The notes: generated by a model not told the origin, from the letters alone. A stretch of 64,000 nucleotides of DNA from a virus (IMGVR_UViG_3300023174_004998:32551-96550); one strand, 5' to 3'. Counted from the stretch's first letter, positions 16,426 through 39,219 are shown. Translations and numbers: made by a program.

Positions 16426-16493
16426 ACTGGTGAGTAAGGGTTGCGATGACGATCATAACCATCGTCTTCTGGATACACTGGATATTCGTTCAT
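16422..16493 (-). CDS. 23-aa micro-ORF MNEYPVYPEDDGYDRHRNPYSPV
   Basis: Fills the gap exactly, preceded by AGGA, TGA overlaps next ATG. Confidence 0.55.
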   Translation of the reverse strand: MNEYPVYPEDDGYDRHRNPYSPV

Positions 16494-16494
16494 G

Positions 16495-17127
16495 TTATCT
16501 TCCTGCATTGCGTATGGCTGCACCGTTGTTGAAACTCTGGCTCCAGGAGTTAGCAGTACGATTACCTTTGCGAGCACTCCACTCGTAGCCTGCACGATGC
16601 CCTGAACAGTCTTTGGTGCATTGACTGCCTTTGAACATCAGCTCGTTTAGCTGTTCTTCTGTAAGACTTTCATCTAGTTCGTCATCCCCAAACTCCATGT
16701 GGTCATATGGGCCCCAGGGTTTGCCTGTACGACTATCTAGTTCACCTGATTCGTCACCGTGTTCATAGTAGTCATCGCTGTAGATTTCCACACCATCGAA
16801 TGTGCCATTGTAGCCAATGTTAAACCTGCGTGTGACACCGTCAGGACAAACAATGCCACGTTGTAACAATCGTTCTATGTCTTCTTGACTCTTGATACCT
16901 TTTTGCAAGTTGCCAGTATCATACACACCGTTGTACCAAGCTGATGCTAGAGTTCTAAAATAGTCTCCAGAATCACTGCCGCCTCCGGGTGCAAACTCAT
17001 TTAAGTCTTCGTTCTTCTTGCGACCTTGGCAATGAGCACGTTGGCTGAAACCTTTGGGGTTAGAGCAATCTATAGAGCGTTTGTATTTCCGGCTCCATTT
17101 TTCTGAGATGAATTCTTCAGCTCTCAT
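16495..17127 (-). CDS. putative internal head protein, multi-module (MRAEEFISE leader)
   Basis: Leader; modules KWSRKYKRSIDC.., EFAPGGG.., ELMFKGSQCTKDCSGH separated by LxE. Confidence 0.7.
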   Translation of the reverse strand: MRAEEFISEKWSRKYKRSIDCSNPKGFSQRAHCQGRKKNEDLNEFAPGGGSDSGDYFRTLASAWYNGVYDTGNLQKGIKSQEDIERLLQRGIVCPDGVTRRFNIGYNGTFDGVEIYSDDYYEHGDESGELDSRTGKPWGPYDHMEFGDDELDESLTEEQLNELMFKGSQCTKDCSGHRAGYEWSARKGNRTANSWSQSFNNGAAIRNAGR

Positions 17128-17531
17128 TTGGTCACCGGTCCACCTTCGACCCAAGCATCGCAGGTGCGCTTGGCTGCACACTTAAATTTTAGAAACTTGC
17201 AATATCCTAGATCGCCAGCATCTATGGTGTCATGTGGATCTGACCCTGGTTCACTGCCAATGCCCCTGGCTATACAATCCAGCATGTCAGGACTCATATC
17301 AAAGGCCGCACAGTTGCCACAGCGGTTGTTCTTTACTGATTCAATATCGTTGGTGTTCCAACGGTCGGCCAGTTCAGCCCAGTATTCTTCATTGGGCTCG
17401 TTGGGATTTAGCGGACCATAGTGATATTCATCTATGGCCTTTTGACGATTCTTGAGATTGAGATCAATGCTCTGCGTGGCTGGTGGACAGCCTTTTTCTA
17501 GAGCTTCTAACAAGTTGATATAGTTTCTCAT
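17124..17531 (-). CDS. Cys-rich (HiPIP-like pattern) putative internal protein
   Basis: MRNYINLLE leader; RCGNC...GYC...CAAKRTCDAW. Confidence 0.65.
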   Translation of the reverse strand: MRNYINLLEALEKGCPPATQSIDLNLKNRQKAIDEYHYGPLNPNEPNEEYWAELADRWNTNDIESVKNNRCGNCAAFDMSPDMLDCIARGIGSEPGSDPHDTIDAGDLGYCKFLKFKCAAKRTCDAWVEGGPVTK

Positions 17532-18136
17532 TTTGTTGATTTAGCTTCAGCACGGTCTTGTGCTTTGAGAGGTAAACTTACAGGGTATTGATAACAAGCT
17601 TCTGGGTTACCCTGACCAGCTTCGGTCAAGAATGATGTAGCTGCCGGAACTTGTCCCGATGGGCATGAACACACAGCAATGCCATCAGCACCTTTGACAC
17701 AGTTCCAACTGAAACAGTTGCTGGACTTGGCGCCAAGATTCAAACTGGCATCACACTTTTGTACAGTGGCTTTTTGTTTCCATGGTAATGAACTAAAGTT
17801 GCTGGCTTCTTGTGGGTAAAACAGTTTGGGAGCAAACAAACTCCAAACATTTTTATCACTAGTAGGCGCACATGAACCTTTCATATTGCCAGCTGAGGTA
17901 TCAGCAATAGCATGGCCTTTGAGTATGGGGCAACGGCATTCTACTTCAGGATATGGCACACCATTGTTGCCAGTGATCATTTTTGGTGTTCCATCTTTGT
18001 TCATGACTGGTTTGCAAGTGCTGGCGGCACACAGCGCATATTCGCCATCACAGAGTGTAATACCAGCAGTGGGCAATTGAGCCAACACAGGGGTTGACAG
18101 CATTATGAATGCTACTATTGCTAATAATTGTTTCAT
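17528..18136 (-). CDS. secreted Cys-rich protein
   Basis: Signal peptide MKQLLAIVAFIMLSTPVLA; many Cys. Confidence 0.7.
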   Translation of the reverse strand: MKQLLAIVAFIMLSTPVLAQLPTAGITLCDGEYALCAASTCKPVMNKDGTPKMITGNNGVPYPEVECRCPILKGHAIADTSAGNMKGSCAPTSDKNVWSLFAPKLFYPQEASNFSSLPWKQKATVQKCDASLNLGAKSSNCFSWNCVKGADGIAVCSCPSGQVPAATSFLTEAGQGNPEACYQYPVSLPLKAQDRAEAKSTK

Positions 18137-18149
18137 TGTTTTCCTTTGA

Positions 18150-18251
18150 TTAAGTTTTTAATAACTGCTTGAGTTTGTCCAACGCGGCATTGAAGTTCTC
18201 TGCTATTATTGTAAATGCTTGTCCTTCTACAGTAAAGTTATATGTTCTCAT
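18150..18251 (-). CDS. 33-aa micro-ORF MRTYNFTVEGQAFTII...
   Basis: Hand translation, fills gap, GGAG upstream. Confidence 0.5.
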   Translation of the reverse strand: MRTYNFTVEGQAFTIIAENFNAALDKLKQLLKT

Positions 18252-18252
18252 T

Positions 18253-18783
18253 TCATGCTCCTTTGTTTTTGATCCAGTCATCTGGAGTCTTGTTGTGCTT
18301 GGCTACAAAACGATCATGTAGCTGTTTGGCAGTTATTTTTGATTTTTTAGCGATGGACTGCATCATGTGATCAATGGCATCGTAACTGGTGGGATTTTTT
18401 AAAACCTTTTCTAAATCCTTGACCTCGTCTTCACGCACCCGGGTAGCTACGTTCTTAGCTGGGCCTCGGCGTTCGGGATTGGGATCTTCTCTACGCTTCT
18501 TGGCCGCGGCTGATGCACGTTTCTTTTTGCCCAGTGCATAGGCCTTGGATCTTGGCAAACACTTGGGTTTACCTTCCGAATCATCGCCACGGGCACAGTC
18601 GCCACGAATCTTGCCATCGGGCCCAAAGCGTACCCATTTTTCCTTGAACCACTTCTTGAGATCCTCTTCCATTTGCTGTTCGCTCACAGGCACACAGTTA
18701 GGCACCATGCGGTCACCTTTTTTCTTCATGCCTGCTTGACGATATCCAGTCCAGCAAGCTTCGAGGATTTCTTGATATCTCAT
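18253..18783 (-). CDS. putative internal head protein of short basic modules (MRYQEILE leader)
   Basis: ACWTGY...PNCVP; EDLKKWFKEKWV...KPKCLP; third module ...KHNKTPDDW. Confidence 0.7.
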   Translation of the reverse strand: MRYQEILEACWTGYRQAGMKKKGDRMVPNCVPVSEQQMEEDLKKWFKEKWVRFGPDGKIRGDCARGDDSEGKPKCLPRSKAYALGKKKRASAAAKKRREDPNPERRGPAKNVATRVREDEVKDLEKVLKNPTSYDAIDHMMQSIAKKSKITAKQLHDRFVAKHNKTPDDWIKNKGA

Positions 18784-21700
18784 TTTTTCTTACCGCCATT
18801 GCCCCAGTTGTCAGCACCTTTTTTACGACACTGTACTAAAGCACCTGAAGCATAGGCACTGGGCCAAACTTTGTAACGTGATTTAACTTTATTGTAGCAA
18901 GCGTCTTGTTTTTCATCCAACTGGTCTTCGCCCAGTTCTATGTCACGACGATCTTTGGCTCTTTTCTTAGCATAGTCGGTTTGTGGATTCTTTGGTTGAC
19001 GTGCAACTGGTTTGCCGGCATCTACATCACGTTCACGAGCACGACGCTTTTGATAATCAGTTTGACCTTCCGCCACACCTTGCTGACTCAGTGCTTGACG
19101 TGCTTGTTTCAAGCGCACCAAGGCAGTGCTTTCACCTAACATTGAATCTTCGTCTTCACGATACACGGCCTTCTTCATGGCCAAGAACTTTTGCAGTGCT
19201 GCCAAGTCTTTGGTGTATTTGTCTTTGAGATCTTGGAATTGACGATCTGTTTCTGGCACAGGATACAGTTCTTCCATTTCAATATCTGCTTGCAGGCCAG
19301 GGTAGATACCGCCACGCACATTCTGTGCCTTTAAGAACAGCTTGTCGATCTGTTCTTTCATCTGGATTAACTCATCCAACAATGCTATGTGACGTCTAAG
19401 ACTTAGAAATTCTTCATGACGTTGAGTACGTTGAGCATTTGATGGACGACCACGACGTGGTCCAGCAGGTGTATTGAGATCAACTGCGGCCGGCGCTGGC
19501 TGTGCAGGTTGTTGTAGACTGCGCAACACTGACATGGCCTTGTCATTGAGTGCTTCTTTGATGTAGCCTTGCTTGATACCAACTTTGAGCAAATCGCCAA
19601 TACGTTGTTGTATCGCGGCCTTGGCTTCTGGATCACTCATCAGCGCGATGTCTTTTTGTAGTTCACGCATCACACGCATTTTTTCTGCCCAGTCGCTCAC
19701 AGTCGTGATGGCATTGTATCCTGAACGATTTAAATCTTCAGTTTCACGTATCTTGATACCTTGGCTTTGTGCGCGGCCTTCTAACTCAGCAATCTTCAAA
19801 CGGATGGCTTCTTTCTCACCAGGAGAAGCATTGGCCATCTGACGGAATAGTCGATCACGTGCATTTAAAAACTCTTCACGTTGTTTATTGCTACCGCCTG
19901 GTGTGGGTTGTGCAATGTTGAACTTGTCCATGCGTTGATTTTCACGTGCGATACCAGTCCAGTTAATAGTACCTGTGGGCCAGCGTACACCAATTTCCAT
20001 GGAAGGATATTTCTTCTTTAGAGCTTGTGCATGAGCAAAGGCTTTGTTGGAACTGTGGTGCTGTTTGAGATCACTGACAATACCATCCTTGCGACGTACC
20101 ACACGGAAGTCGCCCACTGGTTCTTCTTCCCCAGCTGATTGTTCTCTGCGTTTGAAATTTTGTGAAGCCTGCTGACCCGCTTTCCATTGCTGTTCAATGT
20201 CTAGGTCTTTGAAACGACCTTCTTCAACATAGTCTTCCTCATCAGCATAGTCATTGTATTTGACATTGGAAGCATGAAACGCATGTTTACCAAAATTGTA
20301 GAGATCCACTATGACAAAGTGCTTGTCACGGCCAAAGCCTGAGACATCACCAGTCTTGCCAGCATGCTCTACGTTGCCACCAATGATCACAGGATCACCA
20401 ATGTGTAATTCTTCATTGCTTTCGTTCATACCAACTGCTTTGCCAAAATCTCCCATGTCTACTCCTTGCAGTGCGGCTGCCATTGGGTCCACTGCGGCAT
20501 CTGATTTTTTCTTTCGAGCACGACTGATAGGAATCACTTTTCCATCATCCTTGGGTATTTCCACATACGGTGGTGCCTGTATCACAGTTGGTTCAGCGAT
20601 TTTCTTGGGAGCGGTTTTCTTGGGAGCGGCTTTCTTACGAACTGCTGGTTTCTTTTTCTTCTCAGGAGCAGGCTGTGCCACGTCTGTTGGTTGTTGCTGT
20701 GGTTGAGTAGCAACTTCTGGTTCTGCGGGTTTCTCTGCGGCCTTTGGTTGTGTTGCTTGCGGTTCTTCAGGTTTCACAGCAGGCTTGGCCGGAACTTCAG
20801 GAGCAGTTTTGGCTACCACTGGTTCTGGTTGTTGTTTGAGTTGTTGTATTTCTTGATCTTGTTGTTGCACCACAGCGGCCAACTGTTGCATCTGTTGATC
20901 TTGAGAATCGTTGTCTTTGCGTAGTTGATCAATTTCAGCTTGTGCGGCCTGCGATTTTTCTAATTCGTCCTGTACAAAGGCTTCAATGTCACTGCCGGCC
21001 GCACTTTGACGAGCACGGGCCAGCTGGAAAGCTCTGGCCACTCGGGGATTTACCATGCTCTTACGATCTAATTCTGTTATTTCAGAATTTTTTTTTTGAG
21101 CTTCAGCTTCTTTGATTTTGGGAGTGCCCATGCCAGGCAGATCCATCTGGCCTGGAGGAACAGGTTCTGTGCCTGGTGCAACATAGGCAGGAACTTTCTT
21201 AGGCATCATACCTTTGGCACGCAATTTGTCAATGTAGTCAACCATGGCCAACTTGTCACCAAATGTATTAAGAATGATGTTGACTTTTTGCTGTGGCTTC
21301 ATACGGCCAAAGTCTTTTAATATAGCATAGATCTGCGAACGATAAAGAGTAAGAGGGCGATCGCCAGCAAATTCGAATTCACTGTAGGGCTTGTTTTCCA
21401 TGTAGTCTTTGATCATGCGTTCCCAATTGATCTTGCCTGCTGTTTGTGTAGTAGGACGATCTGGATTGGCCATGGCGATCTCTTCTACAGCTTGATCTTC
21501 TTCCATCTGTCCGGGCATGGTATCACCTGTGACACCACGTTCGCCAGGAATACTACCTTGGAAATTCTTTTGTTTGTCAATGAGTTGACGCAGTTGTTTC
21601 ATGTGCTGATCAAACTTCACAGGATCTGCAAGATGATTCAAGAACTCTTCCTGACGACCTGCTTTGTTAAATGCTTTGTACTTGGCAAATATCCAACGTG

Positions 21701-21836
21701 TTTCCATTGGATCTAGAGTGATTGTTTCACCGCCAATGTTGAGTACAGCATCCTGTCCTGATTGGGAGGCCTGCATCAAGGCTCGTAAATTATCGTAGCC
21801 TGTGGTAGTATCTTCGATCAAGTTCAGTAAATTCAT
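18780..21836 (-). CDS. 1018-aa modular putative internal polyprotein
   Basis: MNLLNLIE leader; coiled coil, KOW/SH3-like and other segments separated by IKE/MNE/VEE/IRE/VAE/LDE. Confidence 0.7.
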   Translation of the reverse strand: MNLLNLIEDTTTGYDNLRALMQASQSGQDAVLNIGGETITLDPMETRWIFAKYKAFNKAGRQEEFLNHLADPVKFDQHMKQLRQLIDKQKNFQGSIPGERGVTGDTMPGQMEEDQAVEEIAMANPDRPTTQTAGKINWERMIKDYMENKPYSEFEFAGDRPLTLYRSQIYAILKDFGRMKPQQKVNIILNTFGDKLAMVDYIDKLRAKGMMPKKVPAYVAPGTEPVPPGQMDLPGMGTPKIKEAEAQKKNSEITELDRKSMVNPRVARAFQLARARQSAAGSDIEAFVQDELEKSQAAQAEIDQLRKDNDSQDQQMQQLAAVVQQQDQEIQQLKQQPEPVVAKTAPEVPAKPAVKPEEPQATQPKAAEKPAEPEVATQPQQQPTDVAQPAPEKKKKPAVRKKAAPKKTAPKKIAEPTVIQAPPYVEIPKDDGKVIPISRARKKKSDAAVDPMAAALQGVDMGDFGKAVGMNESNEELHIGDPVIIGGNVEHAGKTGDVSGFGRDKHFVIVDLYNFGKHAFHASNVKYNDYADEEDYVEEGRFKDLDIEQQWKAGQQASQNFKRREQSAGEEEPVGDFRVVRRKDGIVSDLKQHHSSNKAFAHAQALKKKYPSMEIGVRWPTGTINWTGIARENQRMDKFNIAQPTPGGSNKQREEFLNARDRLFRQMANASPGEKEAIRLKIAELEGRAQSQGIKIRETEDLNRSGYNAITTVSDWAEKMRVMRELQKDIALMSDPEAKAAIQQRIGDLLKVGIKQGYIKEALNDKAMSVLRSLQQPAQPAPAAVDLNTPAGPRRGRPSNAQRTQRHEEFLSLRRHIALLDELIQMKEQIDKLFLKAQNVRGGIYPGLQADIEMEELYPVPETDRQFQDLKDKYTKDLAALQKFLAMKKAVYREDEDSMLGESTALVRLKQARQALSQQGVAEGQTDYQKRRARERDVDAGKPVARQPKNPQTDYAKKRAKDRRDIELGEDQLDEKQDACYNKVKSRYKVWPSAYASGALVQCRKKGADNWGNGGKKK

Positions 21837-22654
21837 TATTGTTCTTCCAAGTAATCTTCGTTTTGTGTTGTACGCATACGACGTCTGTTGAGATACATCT
21901 CACAGGCCATCACAGCATGATCCAGGCTTTCAAACTTTGCTGAATGCGGTTTATTCTTTATGGTAATACGGAAACCATCATCTTCGTTTCCGTGTATCTT
22001 GATTTCTTTACCATCATCAGTGACGATGGTTTTCACAGCAGAAGTGATCTTGTCAATGTCCTGCGGTACTTTGTCTTTGAGATCAGAGTCTGATTTGATT
22101 TCTTTTGATAGATCAGATAGATAGTCGCCCAGTTTCTTTTTTACAGTGGAGATGACATCCTCAGTGGCCTTGGCTTCCGACAAACTTGAACCGGCCAGTA
22201 TTTGTTCAACACTGCGCACATAGGCTGATACATCACTGCTGCCAATTTCGTCTACATCGCCCACAAACTCAGCAACATCACGTGCGGCATCCATCACTGC
22301 CTGTGGACCATAACGGCCCAACAAACTGGTGTGTTGCATCATGATACGATGCAAGATAGCACGTTCTACTGGGTTGTCATTATCTTCGCTTTCCAAAAAT
22401 GATTTGGTATCTGGATCCACACCATCAGGAGTCTCATCTGCTCCAGTGTCACCTACTTCGCTACCCCAACCTGTTTCGTCCCCTTCGCCAACCAAATAAC
22501 CTTGTGTGGCGTTCTTGCCAGGATATGGGCCTGACAACTGTGGTGACGTGTTACGAGGCTTAAACAACGCAGGTAATTGCTTGACGCTTTTTTGTGCGGC
22601 GTCAATGCTTTCTATGCGATTGAACGATTCAAGTATCTTGCGTAGGTCTGCCAT
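21836..22654 (-). CDS. modular putative internal protein (MADLRKILE leader)
   Basis: Start after Dps stop; internal LxE junctions. Confidence 0.65.
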   Translation of the reverse strand: MADLRKILESFNRIESIDAAQKSVKQLPALFKPRNTSPQLSGPYPGKNATQGYLVGEGDETGWGSEVGDTGADETPDGVDPDTKSFLESEDNDNPVERAILHRIMMQHTSLLGRYGPQAVMDAARDVAEFVGDVDEIGSSDVSAYVRSVEQILAGSSLSEAKATEDVISTVKKKLGDYLSDLSKEIKSDSDLKDKVPQDIDKITSAVKTIVTDDGKEIKIHGNEDDGFRITIKNKPHSAKFESLDHAVMACEMYLNRRRMRTTQNEDYLEEQ

Positions 22655-22656
22655 GA

Positions 22657-23097
22657 TTATGCTCTTGCGTCTTTTAAGAAACTCTTGAGTTGCCATGCAT
22701 ACTTGCCATGACTGTCTTGACGTTCTGCCATGAAGTTGGCAATGTCCTCACGTCCTTCGGCCTGTGCGACTTGAAATACTTGCATCACAATGCTCTTCAT
22801 TGTTTCTGTATCTGCCAATAATTCTTCTAACATTAGTCGAGCACGTGGAATCTTTGTCTGTCCAGGAATTTGACTGAGTTCATTGAAACGCTCTAGGCTG
22901 CCTGGTGCATAGTCTTCCAAGGTGCGAATGTACTCAGCAATCTTGTCTACAGCACCATATGCATCTGCATAGATTTCAGCAAAAAATTCGTGCAATTGAG
23001 CAAAGTCTGGACCTTCCACATTCCAGTGGAACATCTGTGCTTTTAAGTAATAAGCAAAATTACTGGCTAATAGAGTTTTCAAATCGTCTGACAGCAT
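22657..23097 (-). CDS. dps: Dps/ferritin-like DNA-protecting protein
   Basis: FHWNVEGPDFAQLHEFF, DKIAEYIRTL, KYAWQL. Confidence 0.92.
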   Translation of the reverse strand: MLSDDLKTLLASNFAYYLKAQMFHWNVEGPDFAQLHEFFAEIYADAYGAVDKIAEYIRTLEDYAPGSLERFNELSQIPGQTKIPRARLMLEELLADTETMKSIVMQVFQVAQAEGREDIANFMAERQDSHGKYAWQLKSFLKDARA

Positions 23098-23242
23098 TGG
23101 GTTTCTTCTTTCTAGAATTCTTTTTATATTTATCCGCAGGCACTATAGGCTGGGTTCTTGACAACACAGCACCCATGGGCATGGCAACAGTGGCTATGCC
23201 GCCGCTAACCGTGGTTTCTGCTATAAATTCATGCGCTCTCAT
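23060..23242 (-). CDS. small basic putative internal protein (MRAHEFIAE leader)
   Basis: Leader, ETTVSGGIATVAMPMG, Lys-rich tail. Confidence 0.65.
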   Translation of the reverse strand: MRAHEFIAETTVSGGIATVAMPMGAVLSRTQPIVPADKYKKNSRKKKPNAVRRFENSISQ

Positions 23243-23528
23243 TGACGATCTCAAAGGTTTTTGAGTCAATGACTTGTGCAGGGCCATTGGATACTTTTAA
23301 GTTGCGTATTTTAAATTGACAGTCTGGATCGCCAAGATTATCTACTCTTATAGTGTATTTTCCTGGTGGCGCATCTAGAGATATATTTTCTTCAAGATAC
23401 TGTGTACCGCCCCAGATATAGGTACGCTCTGTGAATAGCTCATGATTCACATATAATCGATAAACTGGGGGCACCTTTTTCCAATCACAAAAAAGGTCTA
23501 GGTTTACTTTTACAAAATGTTTACGCAT
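23229..23528 (-). CDS. hypothetical beta-rich protein
   Basis: ATG 5 nt after TAAATA (23534-23539). Confidence 0.65.
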   Translation of the reverse strand: MRKHFVKVNLDLFCDWKKVPPVYRLYVNHELFTERTYIWGGTQYLEENISLDAPPGKYTIRVDNLGDPDCQFKIRNLKVSNGPAQVIDSKTFEIVNESA

Positions 23529-23556
23529 ACAGATATTTACCGCATGCGTAATTGTG

Positions 23557-24297
23557 TCATTTATGAAAGTTGTCGTACCAGCTGGCTTGCCTACTGAGTT
23601 GTATACCACGTTGGCGTTCAGCTTTGTTGCCTGATTTTTTCATTTTGTTGGCTTTGGCTCGCAGGCGCTTTAGATCTGTTTGACTTAACTTTTCTCCAGA
23701 ACCCTTGCCCAAATAGGCAGCGGCTTTGCGTTTGATGCTACCTGGGCGGCTACCGGGCTTGGCAGCTCCGGTAAAATCTTCCACGGTATTGAGATAGGAT
23801 ACAAGTGTTTCGTTCATGCCAGACTCCTGAAAAATAGGACCTTGAACAGTGTTACCACGCTGTCCAACAATGACTTGATTAAGGTGTTGTGCCCATTCTG
23901 GATTTGCATCAAAATGGCGTCGACGTAGTCCCAAAGGAAATAAATGTACTTCCACAGGATCGTCACCTTCGCTTTGCAGTATGGCCATCATTCTATGGCG
24001 GCCATCATGCCCAACTACTCTAGCTGGTTTAGATAAATTGTTTGATTCCCAGCCCTCGGGTATGTCTATTTCCAAGAACGGTGCGCCAATGCCTTCTGTA
24101 TCTTTGTGTTGTTTGACATATTCTACAGCTTCTTGATCTTGTGGAGTATTGGGCATGGGCAATGCCAACTTTAAGAAAGTACTGGGACGCATGGCTACTC
24201 GCAGTCCAAAGTAGTCAATTTCTTGATTCTTGGGAACACTACCAATGCCTGATTGGTTGTTGATCTTGTATTCGTCAATAAACTCGTGGGATCTCAT
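23557..24297 (-). CDS. ParB/Srx-like domain plus basic module (MRSHEFIDE leader)
   Basis: GIGAPFL...VVGHDGRHRMMAI...VEVH; C-terminal KPGSRPGSIKR module. Confidence 0.7.
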   Translation of the reverse strand: MRSHEFIDEYKINNQSGIGSVPKNQEIDYFGLRVAMRPSTFLKLALPMPNTPQDQEAVEYVKQHKDTEGIGAPFLEIDIPEGWESNNLSKPARVVGHDGRHRMMAILQSEGDDPVEVHLFPLGLRRRHFDANPEWAQHLNQVIVGQRGNTVQGPIFQESGMNETLVSYLNTVEDFTGAAKPGSRPGSIKRKAAAYLGKGSGEKLSQTDLKRLRAKANKMKKSGNKAERQRGIQLSRQASWYDNFHK

Positions 24298-24614
24298 TAG
24301 CGCACCCGTAACACAGGATTGCGCCCGTGGTAGTTTTCGTTGTGATACACAGTATTCAACAACAGCTTGTTGGGATCAAAGGCCGACCTCATCATGCCAA
24401 GATGTATGTTGTGGTGACTGTCAAAAACATTGAACTGTGTGTTAGGTTCCAACTCTTTGATGTGTCTGCGAGCACGATCTAATCTGTTGAGTATGCCTAC
24501 GATTATGGGCATAGAGATTCCACGCTTTTCAGCACGATTGTCCAAGTGCGGACTCACACGTATGCGGAATCCACCTGCGTTGAGATCTTCAGTGACAAAT
24601 TCTTGAGCTTTCAA
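24297..24614 (-). CDS. small putative internal protein, possible RNase-toxin-like fold (MKAQEFVTE leader)
   Basis: SPHLDNRAEKRGI...LLLNTVY resembles DUF4258/BrnT-like patterns; TTG start. Confidence 0.55.
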   Translation of the reverse strand: MKAQEFVTEDLNAGGFRIRVSPHLDNRAEKRGISMPIIVGILNRLDRARRHIKELEPNTQFNVFDSHHNIHLGMMRSAFDPNKLLLNTVYHNENYHGRNPVLRVR

Positions 24615-24793
24615 CGCACTCTCCTGATGGCACCAATGTGATGATCTTCTATACCATACTGTGCTTTCAATAACTGGCGTGCTTCTGCTTGATTGTGAGC
24701 ATACACTGACACTTCAATCCTACCTGTGTAGTTGGGATTGCTGATGGTAATTTTAGCCAACCAACGGTGTCCTGTGAGTTCTTTTGCTCGCAT
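24611..24793 (-). CDS. small hypothetical protein (MRAKEL leader)
   Basis: VYAHNQAEARQLLKAQYG. Confidence 0.6.
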   Translation of the reverse strand: MRAKELTGHRWLAKITISNPNYTGRIEVSVYAHNQAEARQLLKAQYGIEDHHIGAIRRVR

Positions 24794-24806
24794 AATGTAT
24801 TACTTA

Positions 24807-25697
24807 TTAGTTTGTCTCAAAGTTCTTTTGAACGCGATATGTTTCGTCCGGGAACTTGGCCAAGTAAGCGTCAATCATGTGATCGAAACTACTGCCAAAT
24901 CTGGCTTTCAAACTTTTCAAGCTCACTGCCTGATCTTTTTCGTTCATGAACTGACCTGTTTGTTCGTTGTTGATGATATAGTCTTCACCACGATCGTGAT
25001 ATATTTCCAAATAATCACTGTCATTGTACACAGGCAGATCGCCAATGCTGTAGTCAAACCACAGCTGATACTTTTCACCTGGATGTTGAGGTTGTTGCGG
25101 TACAACTATCAGCAGGGGTGTGTTTTCAGCATAGTTGTTGAAATAGTTCTTGCCTTTGGTTGCCGCTGTACACCAGCGTGTGCCTTGCCCATAGTAACAG
25201 GCCGCGGCTTGATCGTAGGGCATGATCACTCGAACTTGCTGATCCTGATATATTTCTTCAGCCTGTCCTTTGTCTTTTAACTCAGGTGCTTCGGGATCTG
25301 GATATTCATCCATCACACTCATGAAGTCACCAAAGTTACTGTAGCCCAAGATATCATTTCTGGGTGCTGGTATTTTTTTTCTGCGAGTTAATACATAGAA
25401 CTTTTCCAAATATTCACGCACCTGTGTGAGTACATCTTCAAGAAATGTTTCACCTTTGATGTAGGTACGAGCCAACCAAGGCATGTACTGTTTGTTGGGT
25501 GAAGGGTCTGCCAGTTCCAACATGCGGATCAAAGCTTCTATAGTATCATCGTCGCTGTCTTGTGGGCCAAGATCACGACCCAGTACTCTGCGTATGCGGC
25601 CCGGCCCTTCTCTACGGAATGTGTTCAGCACTTGAGTTCCCAGGCGTTGCTTGGTTATGTCACGGCTGTATTCTAATAGGAATTCCTGGGCTCTCAT
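24807..25697 (-). CDS. putative internal protein with ACYYGxGTRWCTA (PcfJ-like) domain (MRAQEFLLE leader)
   Basis: ADPSPNKQYMPW, AACYYGQGTRWCTAA, KYQL, FMNEKD. Confidence 0.65.
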   Translation of the reverse strand: MRAQEFLLEYSRDITKQRLGTQVLNTFRREGPGRIRRVLGRDLGPQDSDDDTIEALIRMLELADPSPNKQYMPWLARTYIKGETFLEDVLTQVREYLEKFYVLTRRKKIPAPRNDILGYSNFGDFMSVMDEYPDPEAPELKDKGQAEEIYQDQQVRVIMPYDQAAACYYGQGTRWCTAATKGKNYFNNYAENTPLLIVVPQQPQHPGEKYQLWFDYSIGDLPVYNDSDYLEIYHDRGEDYIINNEQTGQFMNEKDQAVSLKSLKARFGSSFDHMIDAYLAKFPDETYRVQKNFETN

Positions 25698-25894
25698 TTC
25701 TTTCGCCCCGATTTCATATTGGCACACCAATGGTACATCTTGGCACGTTCGCCAGAAGCATTTTTAGCACGTCGACGTAGATCAGTTACACTGCCCGAGC
25801 AACTGGCACCTGCACGTTTTACACGGCCTGGGCGACTTTTTCCTTTGACCCGACCGTCGGCAAAGTTTTCCGTTACAAATTCATGTGCTCTCAT
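25694..25894 (-). CDS. small basic putative internal protein (MRAHEFVTE leader)
   Basis: ENFADGRVKGKSRPGRVKRAGASC...HWCANMKSGRKK. Confidence 0.7.
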   Translation of the reverse strand: MRAHEFVTENFADGRVKGKSRPGRVKRAGASCSGSVTDLRRRAKNASGERAKMYHWCANMKSGRKK

Positions 25895-26667
25895 AAACTA
25901 AAAGGATCCATTATAACTAAATGACCATCGCTTCTACGGCGCAGGTTTTCTATGTTGCTCAAATCTAACGGTGCATGACCGCCCAAGGCGTCAATGAGAT
26001 CTTCAGTGGCCATGAGCAACCCTTGGACTTCGTCGTCATCCAACTCAGGAGGCATTGGGTTATTCTGTTGATAAGCATCAGCATATCCACGTGCCGCCGC
26101 GTTCATCAAATCTTCAAGGTATTCCAATGTGGCTTCTTCATTGGCCACATAGTCCAGATATTCCATTTCATACACAAAATAAGTTTCACCGTTGAGAGAG
26201 AATTCACCTGTGTTGTAGATACGAGGATAGTAGGGATTGCGCTGATTGCGTAGGAAAAACGCTACATAATCTCGAACAATCTTTTCACGTTCAGGATCAC
26301 CAATGCCCAGCACTTTGACCACTGTGTTCCTAGGACTGACAAATGCCATCTGATCGCGGCCTTCGCCAGCAAACTGATACCCACGTTTGAAAAAGTAGTC
26401 TTCAATGTGTTGGCTGACTGTGAGTTCGTCATCAGCGTTGATTTCTGTAAGTCCTTTTTTCTTGGCAAAGTCAATTTGACGCAACATGGCATTGATGTCT
26501 ACTGGATCACGCCCACGTACTTTTAAATCTGTTTCTAAGTCCTGTGGTGATGGATCATCTTTTCTCAGCATGCCTGGGTGGCGAGCAAGACTGGGCCTTT
26601 TAGTAGTAGGCGGCACAATGGGGGTGACAGGAGTTATGACTTCAGTTACAAACTCTTGGGCTCTCAT
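25891..26667 (-). CDS. protein-kinase-like effector (MRAQEFVTE leader)
   Basis: GEGRDQMAF, VVKV, YPRIY, YEMEYL, DLSNIENL, LVIMDP. Confidence 0.7.
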   Translation of the reverse strand: MRAQEFVTEVITPVTPIVPPTTKRPSLARHPGMLRKDDPSPQDLETDLKVRGRDPVDINAMLRQIDFAKKKGLTEINADDELTVSQHIEDYFFKRGYQFAGEGRDQMAFVSPRNTVVKVLGIGDPEREKIVRDYVAFFLRNQRNPYYPRIYNTGEFSLNGETYFVYEMEYLDYVANEEATLEYLEDLMNAAARGYADAYQQNNPMPPELDDDEVQGLLMATEDLIDALGGHAPLDLSNIENLRRRSDGHLVIMDPFSL

Positions 26668-27257
26668 GATCCCATCCACCGTGCTATCATTGTGGTGCGA
26701 GCACTTGAATACACACCAGTGCCACGTCGAGTGCTACGCATGCTTCGGCTACCAGGTTCTACAGGAAATGTAAAACGAGTCCAAGTTTTGTTTTGATCTA
26801 CTACGTTGTCTCCAGGCCGTGGACGATATTCTGGAGTGCGTTCCATGGTATAGCCTTTGACTTCTACTCCTGGTATGGAGTTTAACATAAGCCACATGGC
26901 TTGTCCGTGCTTGGTTTGTGTGTCTCCAGCTTCCAATGTAAGTTTGAGTATGTTGAGAGCAATACCATACAGAGCCTTGCCCAATCCTCGACCACGATAG
27001 TCAGGATCTGTGGCCACAGTTTCCACTTGCCAGGTTTTCAATGGATCAAGAGTTGCGCCAAGATCCAGTTCCGCAACCAGGGTGTCACCGTCAAAGATCA
27101 TGATTTCCATAAATTCAGGATCTTTTTTGTTTACAGCATAGGTATAGCCACTGCCGCCTGGCAAAGGTTTTTTCTTTATTTTATAGTCAGGTTGTCTCAA
27201 TGTGTCTTTGTCACCAAAGTCACCTTGTGGTATGCGGGCTATTTCGTAAAATCTCAT
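26664..27257 (-). CDS. GNAT acetyltransferase (MRFYEI leader)
   Basis: VATDPDYRGRGLGKALY, QTKHGQAMW. Confidence 0.85.
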   Translation of the reverse strand: MRFYEIARIPQGDFGDKDTLRQPDYKIKKKPLPGGSGYTYAVNKKDPEFMEIMIFDGDTLVAELDLGATLDPLKTWQVETVATDPDYRGRGLGKALYGIALNILKLTLEAGDTQTKHGQAMWLMLNSIPGVEVKGYTMERTPEYRPRPGDNVVDQNKTWTRFTFPVEPGSRSMRSTRRGTGVYSSARTTMIARWMGS

Positions 27258-30200
27258 ATCATCACCGGTAATACATCCAAGGCACCAGAGTAGTTGTTTT
27301 CTCTGGCCCACATTGATGCTATCCTGTTGGCATCACCTTGATTGTTGCCCGCTCCACTGAATCTATACAGTTCACGGCCAGCACCATCTACAACTTGCCA
27401 CTGCCCAGAAAATTGATTACCAAATGGTGCACCACTGGATTGAGGGAAGTTTTGTGCAACATCTGGTTCAATGTCTTGCACATGGCGTCGAAGCTCTGCA
27501 GACCAATCACCTATTCCTCCTGCAGGTTGCGGTTCACCTATTCTAGCTTTTAAATCTCGAGAGTCTTGAGCATTGTCTGCGGCTCGCTTGACATCCTGTG
27601 GTTGAATTTCTAAATCGTCAGCATTCTCAAAGTCGTGAAGTACAGCCACTCGGGCTAATAGTTTTTGTGCTTGATCTTGATCAACACGCAGTATACTATC
27701 AATCACACGACCTGTGGGTTTGTAAACAACATCCCAATTGCTTTTTTGTTTGGGTTCTTTGATGCGCTTGGCCATTTGAGCGCGAGCACTTAACTTTTTC
27801 TCTGGCTCAGGAGTGTTGTCGGGTCTGCGATATACCTCGTAATCGTCAGAAAGTCGATCTCCGTATTCGGCCTGGACCTTTTCTTTGGCACGATCAATGT
27901 CACCAGCTCTAACAGTCAGTATGATGTCACCGTAGCTATCCATGACATCAAACCAAGGTTGTTTTAACCGCACATCCAACTGACGTGGGTCGTTGCTGTA
28001 TTTTCTGGTATATTGATCGTATGCAGTATCGTAGTCACGAGCATAAAATGTATCAATGATTCCATCAGGACTATTTTTATTAGCCATGTCGTAGACTTCG
28101 TATTCTTGTTTGCCAGTGGTAGGTATTTCTTTTTGTAGTACAGTATCAGCCCACTGTTTCTTGAGTTGTTCTTTGTCAATGGTACCTGCTGAGTATTCAG
28201 AAAACAGTTTCAGTGCGTCATTCTGCGCACCTGGTGATATTAACTTGTAGAGTTTTTTAGCATACTCTCGGCGCTCAAGATCTGGACGGCTGGCAATGTA
28301 CATGGCACGAGCAAAACGCAACATGGTATCTTTGATATCGTCCCATTCGCCACGACTCTCCATGGAGAGATAATCGCCACCCGGTGATCGGAATTCAATA
28401 TAGCCATCCTGTATGTGCGCCGATGTGTATTTGCTAGTACCCACACCTTGCTGAACATAACGAGCAGCCAACTCAATGAGATTCTTCTGTACTAACTCCA
28501 ATGCGCCCATTGGATCTGTTTTGGCTTCTGTGAGGTCGCCACGATTTCTAGCACCCTGTATGTTTTGTTTGAGTTTGCCCATGGCCGAAGCCGCATAGGT
28601 ATTCGAAGCACGACCAAACTTGTCCAGTATGTACTCGTCACCCATGAACAGCACTAATTTAACATAGTCAACATCTCCGCCCACATAGGGTATAGATATG
28701 CCCATGTGCAGGCCTGTGCTGGAGTTGGTGTAGGCATCAGCTTCGTTTTGTGCCCACTCTATTACGTCTTTGAGCTTGTCAATGGTTTCCAACAATGGCA
28801 TAGGTGGACTAACAATTTCCAGCCCCATGTCGTCGCCGTCATCAGGATCTAAACTACCGTCGGGTTCAATGATCCAGCGACCTTCTTTGCGTGTGGTTGA
28901 GTGATAGTTTCCGCTGACTTTGACTTCCATGCCCACCGCTTGTTGAAGACTATCGCCAATTTCACTCCAGTCACGGTCTCCACCTCCGGATCCACCTCCG
29001 GTCCAGTAAGGCCAGTCAAGAGTATTTGAGTTGGCAATATCGCTCATGTAACCATAGCGATCGCGCAAGAAATCACGCTCATCGTAGTCACCTGAGTCTC
29101 GCATCATTTCAAAATAGTATTCGCGAGCATTGTCATAGTATTCGCCTTGGCTCTCTACTTCACTAATGACTTCAGTTTCAAAATCTTCATGTGCGGCATC
29201 TGAGGCTTCTTGATACTTTTGATACAATTCGTTTTGTTTGGCATAAGCTGTTTGATCACTGCTTCTTGTAAATCTTGGTGCATCCTCGCCAGCTTGTAAT
29301 ATTGCTTGTGAATCATCGTCGGGAAACAGTTCATCTATTTTGTCAGCAATGCGTTTTTCACGTTCTTCGTCATCACTCCAGACATTGGTTTCCATGTAGT
29401 CTCGGACTTGATCTTCAGCGTTTTCGCTCCAAGACTCTGCAATTTGTTCATCTGCCCATTCAACAAATTCTTCAAAAAGTGTGTCGCGCAGATCTCGAGC
29501 ACCGCGACCACTTAGACCATAACCCCAGTCATCGTTGGAAAAGAAGTCTATGACATGATCAATATCGTCTGCACGTTCATCATAGTCATAGTCCGGCTCC
29601 ATATCACCTTCGTCATCGTCACGCTTGGTATCACGGAAGATCAATTCAGCTTCAAAGCCAGCACGTATGCCTTGTGCTTCAGGACTACGAGCCCAGGCTT
29701 CCAAGGTGCCGGTGTTCATCCTTACTTCGTTTATGGGTTCAAATTCGCCAGACTCTTTGAATTCTTTCAGGGCATTGGCCAAGTTCTTCATCAACAAGTC
29801 AGGACGACCTTGACTGTCTGTTTGCAAGCCTAATTTATTGGCTTCCTTGCCCAACTGTCCAGGTTTGATGTCCACTGTGAGTGCTGTTTTAAATCTTGGA
29901 TCTCGGGCCTGTTTCTTTGTGGGAATATAACCTGATGCATTTTCACGCACAGGTGCAGGACCTTGTATCACAACCACAGCACGGAACTGACCACCTAGGT
30001 CATCGGCTTCATGTTCTACAGGGCGCCATTCGCCTATGGAAATAGGACCATATCTTCGGTTAGCGTCTGCGTAAGCGGCGTTGAGTGCGGCTTGATAAGC
30101 GTCTTCACGTGTACGTCCAATGCCGTTGGCTGCCACACGTTCACCTTGTGCTTGTGGTCCACCCCAGATGCGTTTTCCACCCACACGTATTTCTTGATTG

Positions 30201-32650
30201 CCACGTGCTAGATCTCTTGCTATGCCTTTTAATTCTTCTTCGGCTCCTGCCTTGGTAAAGGTCTTGGGAGCATTGTATATCACACGCCCTAGATCATACG
30301 CAGGGCTCTGTGCTTTGGCAGCAGGCGATCCCAGGGCCATGGCTCCAGCCACAGCGGCAGTGCCCAGAGCTTTGCCTAGGCCTTCGTCTAGATCATCCAA
30401 TCTCCGTTGCCATTCTATTTCTTCTGGTGTACGAGGATCTTTCCAGTCGGGATTTTTTGTCAAATCCTGTAGTTCATAGGTATTAGCGCCCATTGGAACC
30501 AAGCCCAGGTACTGATGACTGTTGGGGGCCAAAAACGTTTGATCACTGCGCCAGCCACCTTGTTCCATGCCTTTGGCAGTTTTATACCAGGGTCGCCAAC
30601 TATACTTAAACCTGACCAGGTTGCGTCCATCAATAATCTGTTGAGAAACAACCTGTCTGAGCACTGCCTGTGTGCGGTATTGAGTATTTTGCTCTCTATC
30701 AGCCCAGGGATACCATACAATCTTGGCCTTTTTCTTCAACAAGGCACGTATCTGATCCCCCAAGGGATTGTGCAAGTCTGCTTCAGTGCGTTTTCTGGGA
30801 TGCCAGCTATCATCGTCGTCTTCGTCCTCCCAACGATCGCCATCATTTTTTGGTGGCTTGATCGGAGGTGATATTGATCCACCGCCTGGAGCAAATTCGG
30901 ACAAGTTCTGTTGACGATACATCTGATACATTTTTACATAGTCTTGTTCTTGTCGAGTCAACGGACGACCTAATTTGACCTTAGCAATTATGAATCGATA
31001 GTATTGTTCAGCATCGCGATCTTTACTGACAGGAGTGGCAATAGTCTCACCCACGTTGTAGGTAGGATCAGTCTTTTGTCGTGGCATACCTGCGGGCTGG
31101 TTGGGATCCACAGGGTCAATGTCTGTAGTATCAAGTCCTAATCTTTTTAAATGGTCGATATACTTGTGTTCGGTATTTTCATCACCAAAACTTACAATGG
31201 TACTAGGTGGCCCTTTACCAAACTCGCTGGGGTCAACTTGATCTAGATTGGCAATGTGTTTGCCAAGTTTATACCAGTCGTACACATCTGAAACATCCAC
31301 ACGCACTGTGCCTCGGGGCATGGTGGGTTTGAATTCTGGGCCAGGCGGAGTCTGATCACCATATTGTGCGGCCACGCTGTCACCATCTTCGCTCACAGTG
31401 CTGGCAAAGAACTCAGGATATTTGTTTTGAAAATGGCGCATGATAATACCTGCTTCGGTATTGGCTTCATTTTCGTAGGGGCTTCCTGTGCGACCTGCTG
31501 TGTCAGGCATTGATTTGCCCAGGCGTTCGTGCTGACGATAGTGCGTCAACTCATGTGCCAAGGTACGCAGTATGTCCATGACATGACGATCTTTGGTTTC
31601 CACTTCCACAGTTTTGTGATCATCTACATAGTGACCCATGGAGTGGATGTCGTGGCTGAGTTCACCTTTGCGTAACTTGATTTTGGGAAGTTGTTTTAAT
31701 TTCAAATACTTGGCAGCAAAGTGTACAAAACGACGTACCACCTTGTCCAATGGAATCGCTTTCTTTTCAACATTTACTGTGGATTCTTTTACTGACTCAC
31801 CGCCACCACCATCACCACCGCCATCACCACCGCCATCTGTGGCAGCATCGGTTTGTCCATAATAATGATAGCCTGGATAATAGTATCCGCCGAAGGCGCC
31901 GTACTTAAATGTTTTCTTCTTCTTCTTTTTCTTTCGGCGCTCATCAAGACTGAGTTTGGTATCTTCGAGAGCAGCCTTGTGATCAAATATCTTTTGTATC
32001 AAGCCCTGTTTACGCAGTATTTTATAAGCAAGATTTTCTGGACCAAATTCACCATGCTTGTCTAAGCCTGCTTGACGATATTTCTTCAAGGTATCTGTGA
32101 TGTGTGTGACTCGATCTAGGTCATTGGTGGATAATGCAAGCTCAATCAGTTTCTTTAATTTTTCGTATTTTTGTTGTGTGGATTTCTCGTCGAGATTGCC
32201 CCGGCGCTGAACAGGAATACGATTCCAGTCATTGTCAATGATGCTATACTCGCCCAGGCTACGCACAGGTTTGTTCGAGTCTTGAACATAGAGCTCAACG
32301 TCATAGCCTCTGATTTTTATATCGTGTTGATCGTTGTATTGATATTTTTTAGCATTAAAAAGCTCTTGATAAACATCGTCAGGATTGAGCCGGCTGAAAT
32401 CAACTAATAAGTGTAGGTCAATGTCGGAATGAGGAGTATAAGAGAAAGCGGCGTTGGAGCCACTCACAGTGATATCTTCTATGGCCAGATCATCGATGCC
32501 CATAAAGGTCTTAAAATCATCAGCGATTTTAAGCAGGGCATCGCGCACTTCGGGGCGCATGGTCTTGCCGTCCCAAAGTGCTGGATTAAGCTCAGTGTGA
32601 AACTTTACCGCGTCTGACAGGCGGTAGCTGTCTAATTCGTAGATGTCCAT
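27254..32650 (-). CDS. 1798-aa polyvalent protein: Pol-beta nucleotidyltransferase, zincin-like HExxH, several small modules, amidoligase (COOH-NH2 ligase) domain
   Basis: SGSNAAFSYTPHSDIDLH/VELY; TLAHELTH...ENEAN; GFEAE...EPDGSL...LEIVSPP...NSSTGLH...KY...IEFR. Confidence 0.85.
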   Translation of the reverse strand: MDIYELDSYRLSDAVKFHTELNPALWDGKTMRPEVRDALLKIADDFKTFMGIDDLAIEDITVSGSNAAFSYTPHSDIDLHLLVDFSRLNPDDVYQELFNAKKYQYNDQHDIKIRGYDVELYVQDSNKPVRSLGEYSIIDNDWNRIPVQRRGNLDEKSTQQKYEKLKKLIELALSTNDLDRVTHITDTLKKYRQAGLDKHGEFGPENLAYKILRKQGLIQKIFDHKAALEDTKLSLDERRKKKKKKKTFKYGAFGGYYYPGYHYYGQTDAATDGGGDGGGDGGGGESVKESTVNVEKKAIPLDKVVRRFVHFAAKYLKLKQLPKIKLRKGELSHDIHSMGHYVDDHKTVEVETKDRHVMDILRTLAHELTHYRQHERLGKSMPDTAGRTGSPYENEANTEAGIIMRHFQNKYPEFFASTVSEDGDSVAAQYGDQTPPGPEFKPTMPRGTVRVDVSDVYDWYKLGKHIANLDQVDPSEFGKGPPSTIVSFGDENTEHKYIDHLKRLGLDTTDIDPVDPNQPAGMPRQKTDPTYNVGETIATPVSKDRDAEQYYRFIIAKVKLGRPLTRQEQDYVKMYQMYRQQNLSEFAPGGGSISPPIKPPKNDGDRWEDEDDDDSWHPRKRTEADLHNPLGDQIRALLKKKAKIVWYPWADREQNTQYRTQAVLRQVVSQQIIDGRNLVRFKYSWRPWYKTAKGMEQGGWRSDQTFLAPNSHQYLGLVPMGANTYELQDLTKNPDWKDPRTPEEIEWQRRLDDLDEGLGKALGTAAVAGAMALGSPAAKAQSPAYDLGRVIYNAPKTFTKAGAEEELKGIARDLARGNQEIRVGGKRIWGGPQAQGERVAANGIGRTREDAYQAALNAAYADANRRYGPISIGEWRPVEHEADDLGGQFRAVVVIQGPAPVRENASGYIPTKKQARDPRFKTALTVDIKPGQLGKEANKLGLQTDSQGRPDLLMKNLANALKEFKESGEFEPINEVRMNTGTLEAWARSPEAQGIRAGFEAELIFRDTKRDDDEGDMEPDYDYDERADDIDHVIDFFSNDDWGYGLSGRGARDLRDTLFEEFVEWADEQIAESWSENAEDQVRDYMETNVWSDDEEREKRIADKIDELFPDDDSQAILQAGEDAPRFTRSSDQTAYAKQNELYQKYQEASDAAHEDFETEVISEVESQGEYYDNAREYYFEMMRDSGDYDERDFLRDRYGYMSDIANSNTLDWPYWTGGGSGGGDRDWSEIGDSLQQAVGMEVKVSGNYHSTTRKEGRWIIEPDGSLDPDDGDDMGLEIVSPPMPLLETIDKLKDVIEWAQNEADAYTNSSTGLHMGISIPYVGGDVDYVKLVLFMGDEYILDKFGRASNTYAASAMGKLKQNIQGARNRGDLTEAKTDPMGALELVQKNLIELAARYVQQGVGTSKYTSAHIQDGYIEFRSPGGDYLSMESRGEWDDIKDTMLRFARAMYIASRPDLERREYAKKLYKLISPGAQNDALKLFSEYSAGTIDKEQLKKQWADTVLQKEIPTTGKQEYEVYDMANKNSPDGIIDTFYARDYDTAYDQYTRKYSNDPRQLDVRLKQPWFDVMDSYGDIILTVRAGDIDRAKEKVQAEYGDRLSDDYEVYRRPDNTPEPEKKLSARAQMAKRIKEPKQKSNWDVVYKPTGRVIDSILRVDQDQAQKLLARVAVLHDFENADDLEIQPQDVKRAADNAQDSRDLKARIGEPQPAGGIGDWSAELRRHVQDIEPDVAQNFPQSSGAPFGNQFSGQWQVVDGAGRELYRFSGAGNNQGDANRIASMWARENNYSGALDVLPVMI

Positions 32651-33624: not shown

Positions 33625-33675
33625 GTTTTCCTCTGAAATAATGTGCGTATATTTAGTTTACTATTATACGACAAA

Positions 33676-39215: not shown

Positions 39216-39219
39216 AAAA

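Follow-up and report, generated by a model that had tools for sequence, protein, structure and literature searches.

A probable head-cargo polyprotein of an uncultured giant T4-like phage, with prohead-protease-type joints between its modules

The 64,000-nucleotide stretch IMGVR_UViG_3300023174_004998:32551-96550 (hereafter the window) comes from an uncultured giant T4-like lake phage and forms the final 64 kb of an IMG/VR virus record of 96.5 kb, whose completeness is estimated at 26%. On the minus strand, at 27254–32650, it holds an open reading frame (ORF) with an ATG start, uninterrupted for 1798 codons, whose product, P0001, is probably a head-cargo polyprotein: the chain would be loaded into the prohead, cut at the joints between its modules by a protease of the Peptidase_S77 (gp21) family, and delivered with the DNA. 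Module boundaries at three-residue joints, conservation of these joints independent of context, shuffling of the modules, leaders shared with other genes, and a protease and T4-type head genes in relatives were all observed. From these observations we infer capsid targeting, cleavage and injection of P0001, and a role for its enzymes in the host.

RESULTS

P0001 is a chain of modules separated by hydrophobic-x-Glu joints

The original prediction, made from the sequence of the window, had described this 1798-residue ORF as a Pol-beta nucleotidyltransferase (NTase; GS...DID, aa ~1–235), a poly-Lys/Tyr/Gly spacer, a HELTH zincin-like domain, a hydrophobic helix and an amidoligase-type domain (~29730–28200), strung together with further modules between protease-like sites. 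The ORF and each of these parts were found (Table 1), and all eight proposed sites exist, as LDE237, VKE289, VSE421, VGE535, LSE585, LDE756, VRE903 and INE975. Two AlphaFold models were built from family alignments, one for aa 1–903 and one for aa 904–1798. Stretches with a low predicted local distance difference test score (pLDDT) lie at 246–297, 418–435, 533–539, 584–717, 750–785, 901–903 and 968–973, and every joint is in or at the edge of one of them. The coincidence of domain edges and low-pLDDT linkers with x-x-E sites, which had been proposed as a check, was thus borne out.

The family available for comparison is large. We collected 940 large homologues of 988–3147 aa; the C-terminal half of P0001 is matched by 2366 cluster representatives, and 1843 additional, shorter proteins share the region of the zincin and module 3. 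We aligned aa 1–620 of 85 sequences and listed the Glu columns that were at least 75% conserved. Among these 23 columns, only five have a conserved hydrophobic residue (L/I/V/M) at position P3, two residues ahead of the Glu at P1, namely E5, E237, E289, E535 and E585. Conservation is 100% and 98% for I3-x-E5, E289 is kept in 95% of sequences with a hydrophobic P3 in 91%, and [LV]-A-E585 is present in 82 of 85. Insertions of up to 344 alignment columns start directly after E535 and E585 and no more than two residues from E289. Across 266 relatives, the ends of BLAST segments cluster at about 410–430, 530–540, 580, 750, 890–900 and 960–970.

Counts taken at the conserved start of each module gave the same picture. 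The amidoligase start, [VIL]-x-M-S-P in 267 family members, is preceded by Glu in 249, with L, I or V at P3 in 216, 27 and 3 of these, that is, L/I/V-x-E in 246 of the 249; 47 of these Glu residues end a leader of fewer than 30 aa (MRYxx...LDE) and 202 are internal. L-x-E precedes the Lys-run behind the NTase in 120 of 136 sequences, and Glu precedes module 4 in 49 of 49, with Val at P3 in 42. For module 6, [LVM]-x-E stands ahead of all 17 distinct sequences, which represent seven different upstream contexts, and ahead of 27/27 matches to its GLGK motif. Module 7 mostly has [LV]-x-E plus one residue ahead of ASGYIPT, and the Glu before module 3 is kept across contexts, with A, T, V or I at P3. 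At the joints P2 varies freely, and P3 and P1 are kept.

Modules are exchanged at the joints

As the original prediction had suggested checking, orthologues were compared for gain and loss of modules. Relatives reorder, lose and gain modules exactly at the joints, and [LIV]-x-E is kept whatever lies upstream. More than 30 homologue architectures were found, with permutations such as NkZ7A, NkZ734AC, NkZ3467AC, NkZ3674AC and NkZ674xAC. Module 7 lies directly behind the zincin in most relatives and is duplicated in some. The zincin is skipped in others, where module 3 is joined directly to the spacer or to the end of the NTase; the family members P0037, P0125 and P0187 have no zincin and keep their joints. 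The joints also serve as seams for the evolutionary exchange of modules.

Several modules also occur alone, and their ends coincide with the joints. A stand-alone NTase of cyanophage MA01 starts with MKKLLSE and stops at ...KLSLS, exactly at the E237 joint. About 70 stand-alone amidoligase genes were found. Module 5, present in only 3–4 of 120 large homologues, is a separate 212-aa gene in the relative L048, in which a leader ending in RVDE precedes FAPGGG, and the DDLDE end is followed by a 20-aa tail.

The joint motif also closes short leaders

The stand-alone modules carry short leaders that resemble the T4 capsid targeting sequence (CTS) and end in the joint motif. A related arrangement is seen in the window, in which the P0001 gene stands first in an array of leader-bearing genes: seven ORFs, all at 16.5–26.7 kb and directly downstream of P0001, begin with MR-x-x-E-[FI]-x-x-E, and variants of this start also occur. 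Apart from the joint itself, no paralogy was detected between the modules of P0001 and the neighbouring genes. Among shorter relatives with a Met start, M-x-x-(x)-[ED]-[LFIVM] is found in 99 of 114, versus 5% at internal Met residues. The start of P0001, MDIYEL, fits M-x-x-x-E-[LFI], the first half of this shared leader.

Behind the same leaders, shorter relatives (P0280–P0389) pair the zincin/module-3 region with domains of the cytidine/dCMP deaminase, cytidylyltransferase, chitinase plus LysM, NUDIX, NT5C-type nucleotidase and HAD-like kinds. This variety suggests a much wider repertoire of capsid cargo.

Relatives encode a gp21-family protease among T4-type head genes

Five near-complete relatives (316–355 kb, 91–100% complete) were analysed. 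One of them, L005, shares synteny with the window to either side of the gene, with amino-acid identities of 60–96%; a megablast search for phage DNA close to the window found no relatives. All five encode one Peptidase_S77 protein of about 212 aa (84–96 bits against a cut-off of 27). Its gene lies between that of an acidic protein and that of a scaffold-like protein in which [LIVM]xE occurs 28 times. The gene for a gp23-like capsid protein comes next, and this order of protease, scaffold and gp23 is that of T4.

In T4, gp21 cuts after L/I-X-E inside the prohead, and the 10-residue CTS MKTYQEFIAE loads internal and even foreign proteins into the head (PMC9026906; bioRxiv 10.1101/2021.01.19.427310). 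In phiKZ, 201phi2-1 and SPN3US, many head and ejection proteins are substrates of a gp21-related protease, which cuts after the Glu of a three-residue motif and often does so more than once in a protein (PMC9026906, PMC10052503).

A homologue of the amidoligase module is a virion protein

A cultured T4-like jumbo phage, Agrobacterium phage Atu_ph07, has both a gp21 homologue (gp204) and, at a distance of two genes from the portal gene, an amidoligase homologue of 500 aa (AUZ94978.1; 28% identity over 299 aa, E 6e-26). The latter protein starts with the leader MRWQDISSKKLTE (…KLTE), followed by LKMNSS. With a computed mass of 57.93 kDa it corresponds to gp196, and its neighbour, at 87.30 kDa, to gp197. 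Proteomic analysis of purified Atu_ph07 virions detected gp196 through 14 unique peptides, which cover 30.2% of its sequence (PMC6102473 Table S5). At least one member of the amidoligase module, with the same leader and joint, is thus a virion protein. Unlike P0001, gp196 is the product of a stand-alone gene.

The gene for gp196 adjoins that for gp195, annotated as a T4-like nucleotidyltransferase (Atu_ph07 154929–157431, L071), so that the enzyme pairing of P0001 recurs in separate genes. The virion list does not include gp195, and comparison of its sequence with the NTase of P0001 revealed no similarity.

Proposed processing and the evidence that bears on it

We propose that the P0001 chain, ~200 kDa when intact, would be synthesised late and enter the core of the prohead during assembly, where the gp21-family protease would cut after the Glu of the [L/I/V]-x-E joints, at E237, E289, E421, E535, E585, E756, E903, E975 and perhaps E5. 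The resulting pieces would be the Pol-beta NTase, a basic/aromatic spacer peptide, the zincin metallopeptidase, five small modules and the amidoligase, the last a piece of roughly 93 kDa that keeps its C-terminal repeats. These pieces would remain inside the capsid and accompany the DNA into the next host.

Several observations weigh against this proposal. P0001 as a whole contains 25 [LIVM]xE motifs, compared with 23.9 ± 4.3 in shuffled sequences, so the motif is not enriched; the joints exceed chance in position and conservation, not in number. Since the homologues are mutually related, the counts given above are not counts of independent events. P3 is variable at E421 (A/T/V/I/Q) and at E903 (V or R). 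Three conserved [LI]-x-E motifs (E1060, E1262 and E1393) lie inside the well-folded amidoligase, from which it follows that conservation of the motif alone is no proof of cutting. The N-terminal sequence of P0001, MDIYEL, corresponds to the first half of the leader only, with E5 followed downstream by Tyr instead of the second Glu. No head genes were found on the phage's own 96.5-kb fragment. Finally, in the giant phages studied so far, nearly all cuts by the prohead protease remove propeptides and do not release several enzymes (PMC10052503). The T4 gp21-like specificity that the original prediction had assigned to the boundaries is supported: the hydrophobic-x-Glu pattern is present and the protease is found in 5/5 near-complete relatives, with the limit that P3 varies among relatives at E421 and E903. 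Its figure of ~9 effectors appears generous, considering that the 52-aa spacer and two pieces of 50–72 aa are among them; three pieces are recognisable enzymes.

Could P0001 be an uncut multidomain enzyme, acting in the cytoplasm or in the virion, with [LIV]-x-E serving as a linker or docking motif that binds, for example, the scaffold? Delivery without cutting is described for the virion RNA polymerase of N4 and for several polyvalent proteins (PMC5512222), and the conserved L-x-E within the amidoligase fold would fit such a role. A docking motif, however, leaves unexplained that the same three-residue pattern closes the short leaders of stand-alone modules, that it is kept in seven unrelated upstream contexts, and that it matches the specificity of a protease encoded by the lineage. 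We consider an uncut enzyme unlikely.

We also give little credence to a self-processing polyvalent protein, in which the chain would be cut before or after delivery by its own MPTase-like zincin and the head protease would not be involved. The zincin of P0001 is intact, with a conserved motif and a supported fold, and is a near-constant hub of the family, as is the MPTase in polyvalent proteins (PMC5512222). The same joint nevertheless occurs behind the leaders of stand-alone amidoligase genes, module-5 genes and neighbouring genes, none of which has a zincin in its chain; it is also kept in the three zincin-less family members named above, and its motif is the known specificity of gp21, a protease family encoded by the lineage. 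The exchange of modules exactly at the joints would be expected if these were recombination seams only, kept as DNA micro-homology with the protein motif as a by-product, but this is very improbable, since three copies of the E-FAPGGG joint (GAA TTT GCT CCA GGC GGT GGA, GAG TTT GCA CCC GGA GGC GGC and GAA TTT GCT CCT GGT GGG GGT) differ at silent positions, showing that conservation acts on the protein and not on the DNA, and a free P2 with kept P3 and P1 is the pattern of selection on protein. Cutting by the head protease at the joints stays our preferred reading.

Folds of the modules

Table 1. Coordinates of P0001, its modules and the adjoining gene array (minus strand; positions counted from the first nucleotide of the window)
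Feature	Residues	Nucleotides	Remarks
N-terminus MDIYE	1–5	32636..32650 (-)	short, leader-like; putative targeting role
Pol-beta-type nucleotidyltransferase module	6–237	31940..32635 (-)	end ...LSLDE237
Poly-Lys / Tyr-Gly / GGGD spacer	238–289	31784..31939 (-)	end ES-V-K-E289
Zincin-like metallopeptidase	290–421	31388..31783 (-)	HELTH 366–370, E393/E395
Module 3, alpha/beta	422–535	31046..31387 (-)	end NVGE535; pLDDT 76–84
Module 4, two helices	536–585	30896..31045 (-)	end NLSE585
Module 5, rare	586–756	30383..30895 (-)	start FAPGGG, end DDLDE756
Module 6	757–903	29942..30382 (-)	signal-peptide-like start, then small alpha/beta domain
Module 7	904–975	29726..29941 (-)	start NASGYIPT..., end EPINE975
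Amidoligase, glutamine-synthetase fold, long helical insert	976–1500	28151..29725 (-)	start VRMNTG
C-terminal part	1501–1798	27257..28150 (-)	four small beta-beta-alpha repeats and disordered linker 1705–1744
Array of genes with leaders MR-x-x-E-[FI]-x-x-E		15892..27257 (-)	downstream of P0001

Three enzymes only are recognisable among the pieces: the NTase, the zincin and a ligase with a glutamine-synthetase fold. A search of PDB sequences with the family profile gave no match at E ≤ 1, and the folds were compared with the AlphaFold models. The NTase signature (G64-S65, D76-I77-D78 and D117/E119) is invariant in 81 sequences, and the module matches PHROG 36119 at E 6e-39. Foldseek matched aa ~12–235 to AadA, ANT(4'), CD-NTases (CdnE) and MNT with probabilities of 0.5–0.96, and VIA matched the module to 2rff (Z 7.2); these scores are modest because the 903-aa model was searched whole. 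With the signature and the third acidic residue on an NTase fold, P0001 is a member of the Pol-beta nucleotidyltransferase superfamily. The spacer that follows has a pLDDT of about 26–28.

The HELTH motif is encoded at 31541–31555; conservation reaches at least 90% for H366, E367 and H370, and E393/E395 are likewise conserved. The region aa 297–412 resembles YbeY-like AQ_1354, lugdulysin, Wss1, SPRTN, abylysin and lethal factor (VIA Z 7.5–9.3), Foldseek matched it to 4jiu with a probability of 1.00, and a weak match to phrog_87 was also obtained. The zincin is apparently active. No convincing known fold was found for modules 3, 4, 5 and 7, which were searched only inside the 903-aa model, so that this result is no sign of novelty.

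The amidoligase matches Pfam Amidoligase_2 (PF12224) over aa 1231–1319 with 31.5 bits against a cut-off of 22. Its model has a pLDDT above 90, and the fold, about aa 979–1473, matches ten glutamine synthetases over ~200 aligned residues (VIA Z 9.1–10.7) as well as Dop, PafA and glutamate-cysteine ligases (Z 7.3–8.3). Invariant acidic, His and Arg positions include E1000, E1002, E1262, E1278, H1315, E1419 and R1421. By its Pfam score, which is above the gathering score, and by its fold, the module is of the Amidoligase_2, glutamine-synthetase type.

The model of aa 904–1798 shows a weak helical piece up to 968–973, a very confident body at about 974–1703, the disordered linker listed in Table 1 and a final small domain. 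The C-terminal repeat, W-x-V-x-D...G...A...A, is roughly 45 aa long and is present in four copies within aa 1515–1797. No conserved cut motif was found in the C-terminal 300 aa: relatives have G or D at IGE1706, a non-conserved site that borders the disordered linker, and the linkers between the repeats share no consistent motif. The repeats probably remain joined to the amidoligase. The last copy ends in GNNQGDANR, and copy number differs between relatives.

The hydrophobic helix of the original prediction corresponds to the stretch GLGKALGTAAVAGAMALG (GLGK...) at aa 757–774. Directly after LDE756, module 6 begins (aa 757–785) with GLGK, a 14-residue Ala/Gly/Leu core, Ser-Pro and A-K-A|Q, and this signal-peptide-like start is conserved in 17/17 distinct sequences of the module. 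A cut at E756 would expose an N-terminus like that of a Sec signal, raising the rather doubtful possibility that export of module 6 is masked in the chain and unmasked in the prohead. If so, the exposed signal would be used only after injection, directing module 6 to the envelope or periplasm of the newly infected cell. The folded part of the module, aa 831–903, weakly resembles dodecin, Lpp20 and HP1454 (VIA Z 6.5–6.8); an ESM Atlas search with module 6 gave no usable match. Lpp20 and HP1454 are secreted or periplasmic proteins.

Genomic neighbourhood

The window encodes a T4-type family-B DNA polymerase at 12120–14780. Its guanine-plus-cytosine (GC) content is about 45%, compared with 31–34% in the ~330-kb bS21 Bacteroidetes phages (PMC9723584), and membership in that group is therefore unlikely.

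The T4 late promoter TATAAATA has 0 matches in the window. The sequence CTAAATA, the late-promoter core of the cyanophage type, occurs eight times versus an expected 6.0 ± 2.6, which is not significant; seven of the eight copies are on the coding strand. Copies at 32663–32669 and 33650–33656 (minus strand) stand 13–25 nt ahead of P0001 and of the 320-aa gene that precedes it, respectively. Considering that CTAAATA is not significantly enriched and TATAAATA is absent, late expression of P0001 is not established.

Within the leader array, the gene at 16495–17127 (minus strand) encodes a small multi-joint protein of 210 aa, composed of the leader MRAEEFISE, a Cys-rich piece starting KWSRKYKRS... 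and ending in DLNE, and then FAPGGG..., ELDE and QLNE. Many shorter relatives also have the KWSxKYKRSINC piece, preceded in them by MLLRELLSE leaders. An exception in the array is a 202-aa gene at 17528–18136 (minus strand), whose product begins instead with a conventional signal peptide (MKQLLAIVAFIMLSTPVLAQ) and has several Cys residues. Just upstream of P0001, at 36509–40023 (minus strand), lies a run of protein-quality-control genes. It comprises a gene for a double AAA+ protein similar to ClpA/ClpB (phrog_4871, E 2e-231), one ORF that resembles peptide deformylase (GIGLAAPQIG) and another that resembles DnaJ (HPD motif). A radical-SAM protein is encoded at 42199–43308 (minus strand; phrog_14086, E 1e-17), with no obvious partner genes.

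DISCUSSION

The processing proposed for P0001 resembles that of the T4 internal head proteins IPI, IPII, IPIII and Alt. Genes related to P0001 carry a leader resembling MKTYQEFIAE, the joints have the L/I-x-E motif that is cut after Glu in T4, where Asp at P1 prevents processing and leaves targeting unaffected, and the lineage has genes for a gp21-family protease, a scaffold and a gp23-like capsid protein. A further parallel, predicted for P0001, is enzyme cargo meant for the next host; Alt is an ADP-ribosyltransferase. The T4 proteins, however, each consist of one module that receives one or two cuts near its ends, whereas up to about ten pieces would come from the one chain of P0001; the modules of P0001 are shuffled between relatives and its own leader is only a half-match. 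At some joints P3 is Ala or Thr, unlike in T4 and closer to the phiKZ/SPN3US type. With phiKZ, 201phi2-1 and SPN3US, P0001 shares the gp21-related protease, a three-residue Glu motif and multi-site cutting, the last predicted for P0001; in these phages the cuts remove or fragment propeptides, and the release of several enzymes from one precursor is not described in that literature (PMC9026906, PMC10052503).

Polyvalent proteins of phages and plasmids combine two to 15 functionally disparate domains in one polypeptide, with variable architectures (Iyer et al. 2017, PMC5512222). P0001 is likewise built of many unrelated effector-type domains around a zincin-like hub, including a Pol-beta NTase, and its architectures vary; alongside NTase, zincin and amidoligase it has at least five more modules, and the zincin has HExxH plus a downstream Glu. 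The kinship with polyvalent proteins that the original prediction had suggested holds for domain number, architectures and hub. Delivery with the DNA and processing into units are predicted for P0001, as they are for polyvalent proteins. For polyvalent proteins, self-processing by the MPTase is predicted (PMC5512222), whereas the joints of P0001 carry a head-protease motif that is shared with leader peptides. The Pol-beta NTase is listed there among the domains unique to the plasmid or conjugative-element type and not the phage type, and an amidoligase partner has 0 occurrences in the text of that study (PMC5512222).

Comparison can also be made with the polyproteins of RNA viruses (picorna-like viruses and potyvirids), in which one product is cut at short conserved motifs by a virus-encoded protease. 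There is no relation in sequence or protease class, and in P0001 the cutting would take place in the capsid precursor of a double-stranded DNA phage and would release accessory cargo, not replication machinery. Atu_ph07 gp196 resembles P0001 in its homologous amidoligase and its leader plus joint, and is likewise encoded by a T4-like jumbo phage, one with a gp21 homologue. The parts of the scheme, namely T4 CTS/gp21 cargo processing, phiKZ-like multi-site head proteolysis (PMC10052503) and polyvalent proteins, are known; their combination, a shuffled multi-enzyme chain with head-protease seams shared with capsid-targeting leaders, was not found in the literature searched.

Cutting of P0001 in the proposed way would mean that T4-like jumbo phages follow a polyprotein strategy, in which one targeting event loads many enzymes, and the head-maturation protease doubles as the releasing enzyme. 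The injected arsenal would then change quickly through module swaps at a three-residue joint, and polyvalent proteins, so far defined computationally, would gain a concrete and testable processing mechanism. The joints and leaders could serve the packaging of proteins into T4-type capsids. The NTase, the zincin and the widespread ligase with a glutamine-synthetase fold are candidates for enzymes of host take-over in the first minutes of infection or of counter-defence, in a family with over 900 long homologues and over 1800 shorter proteins that share its modules.

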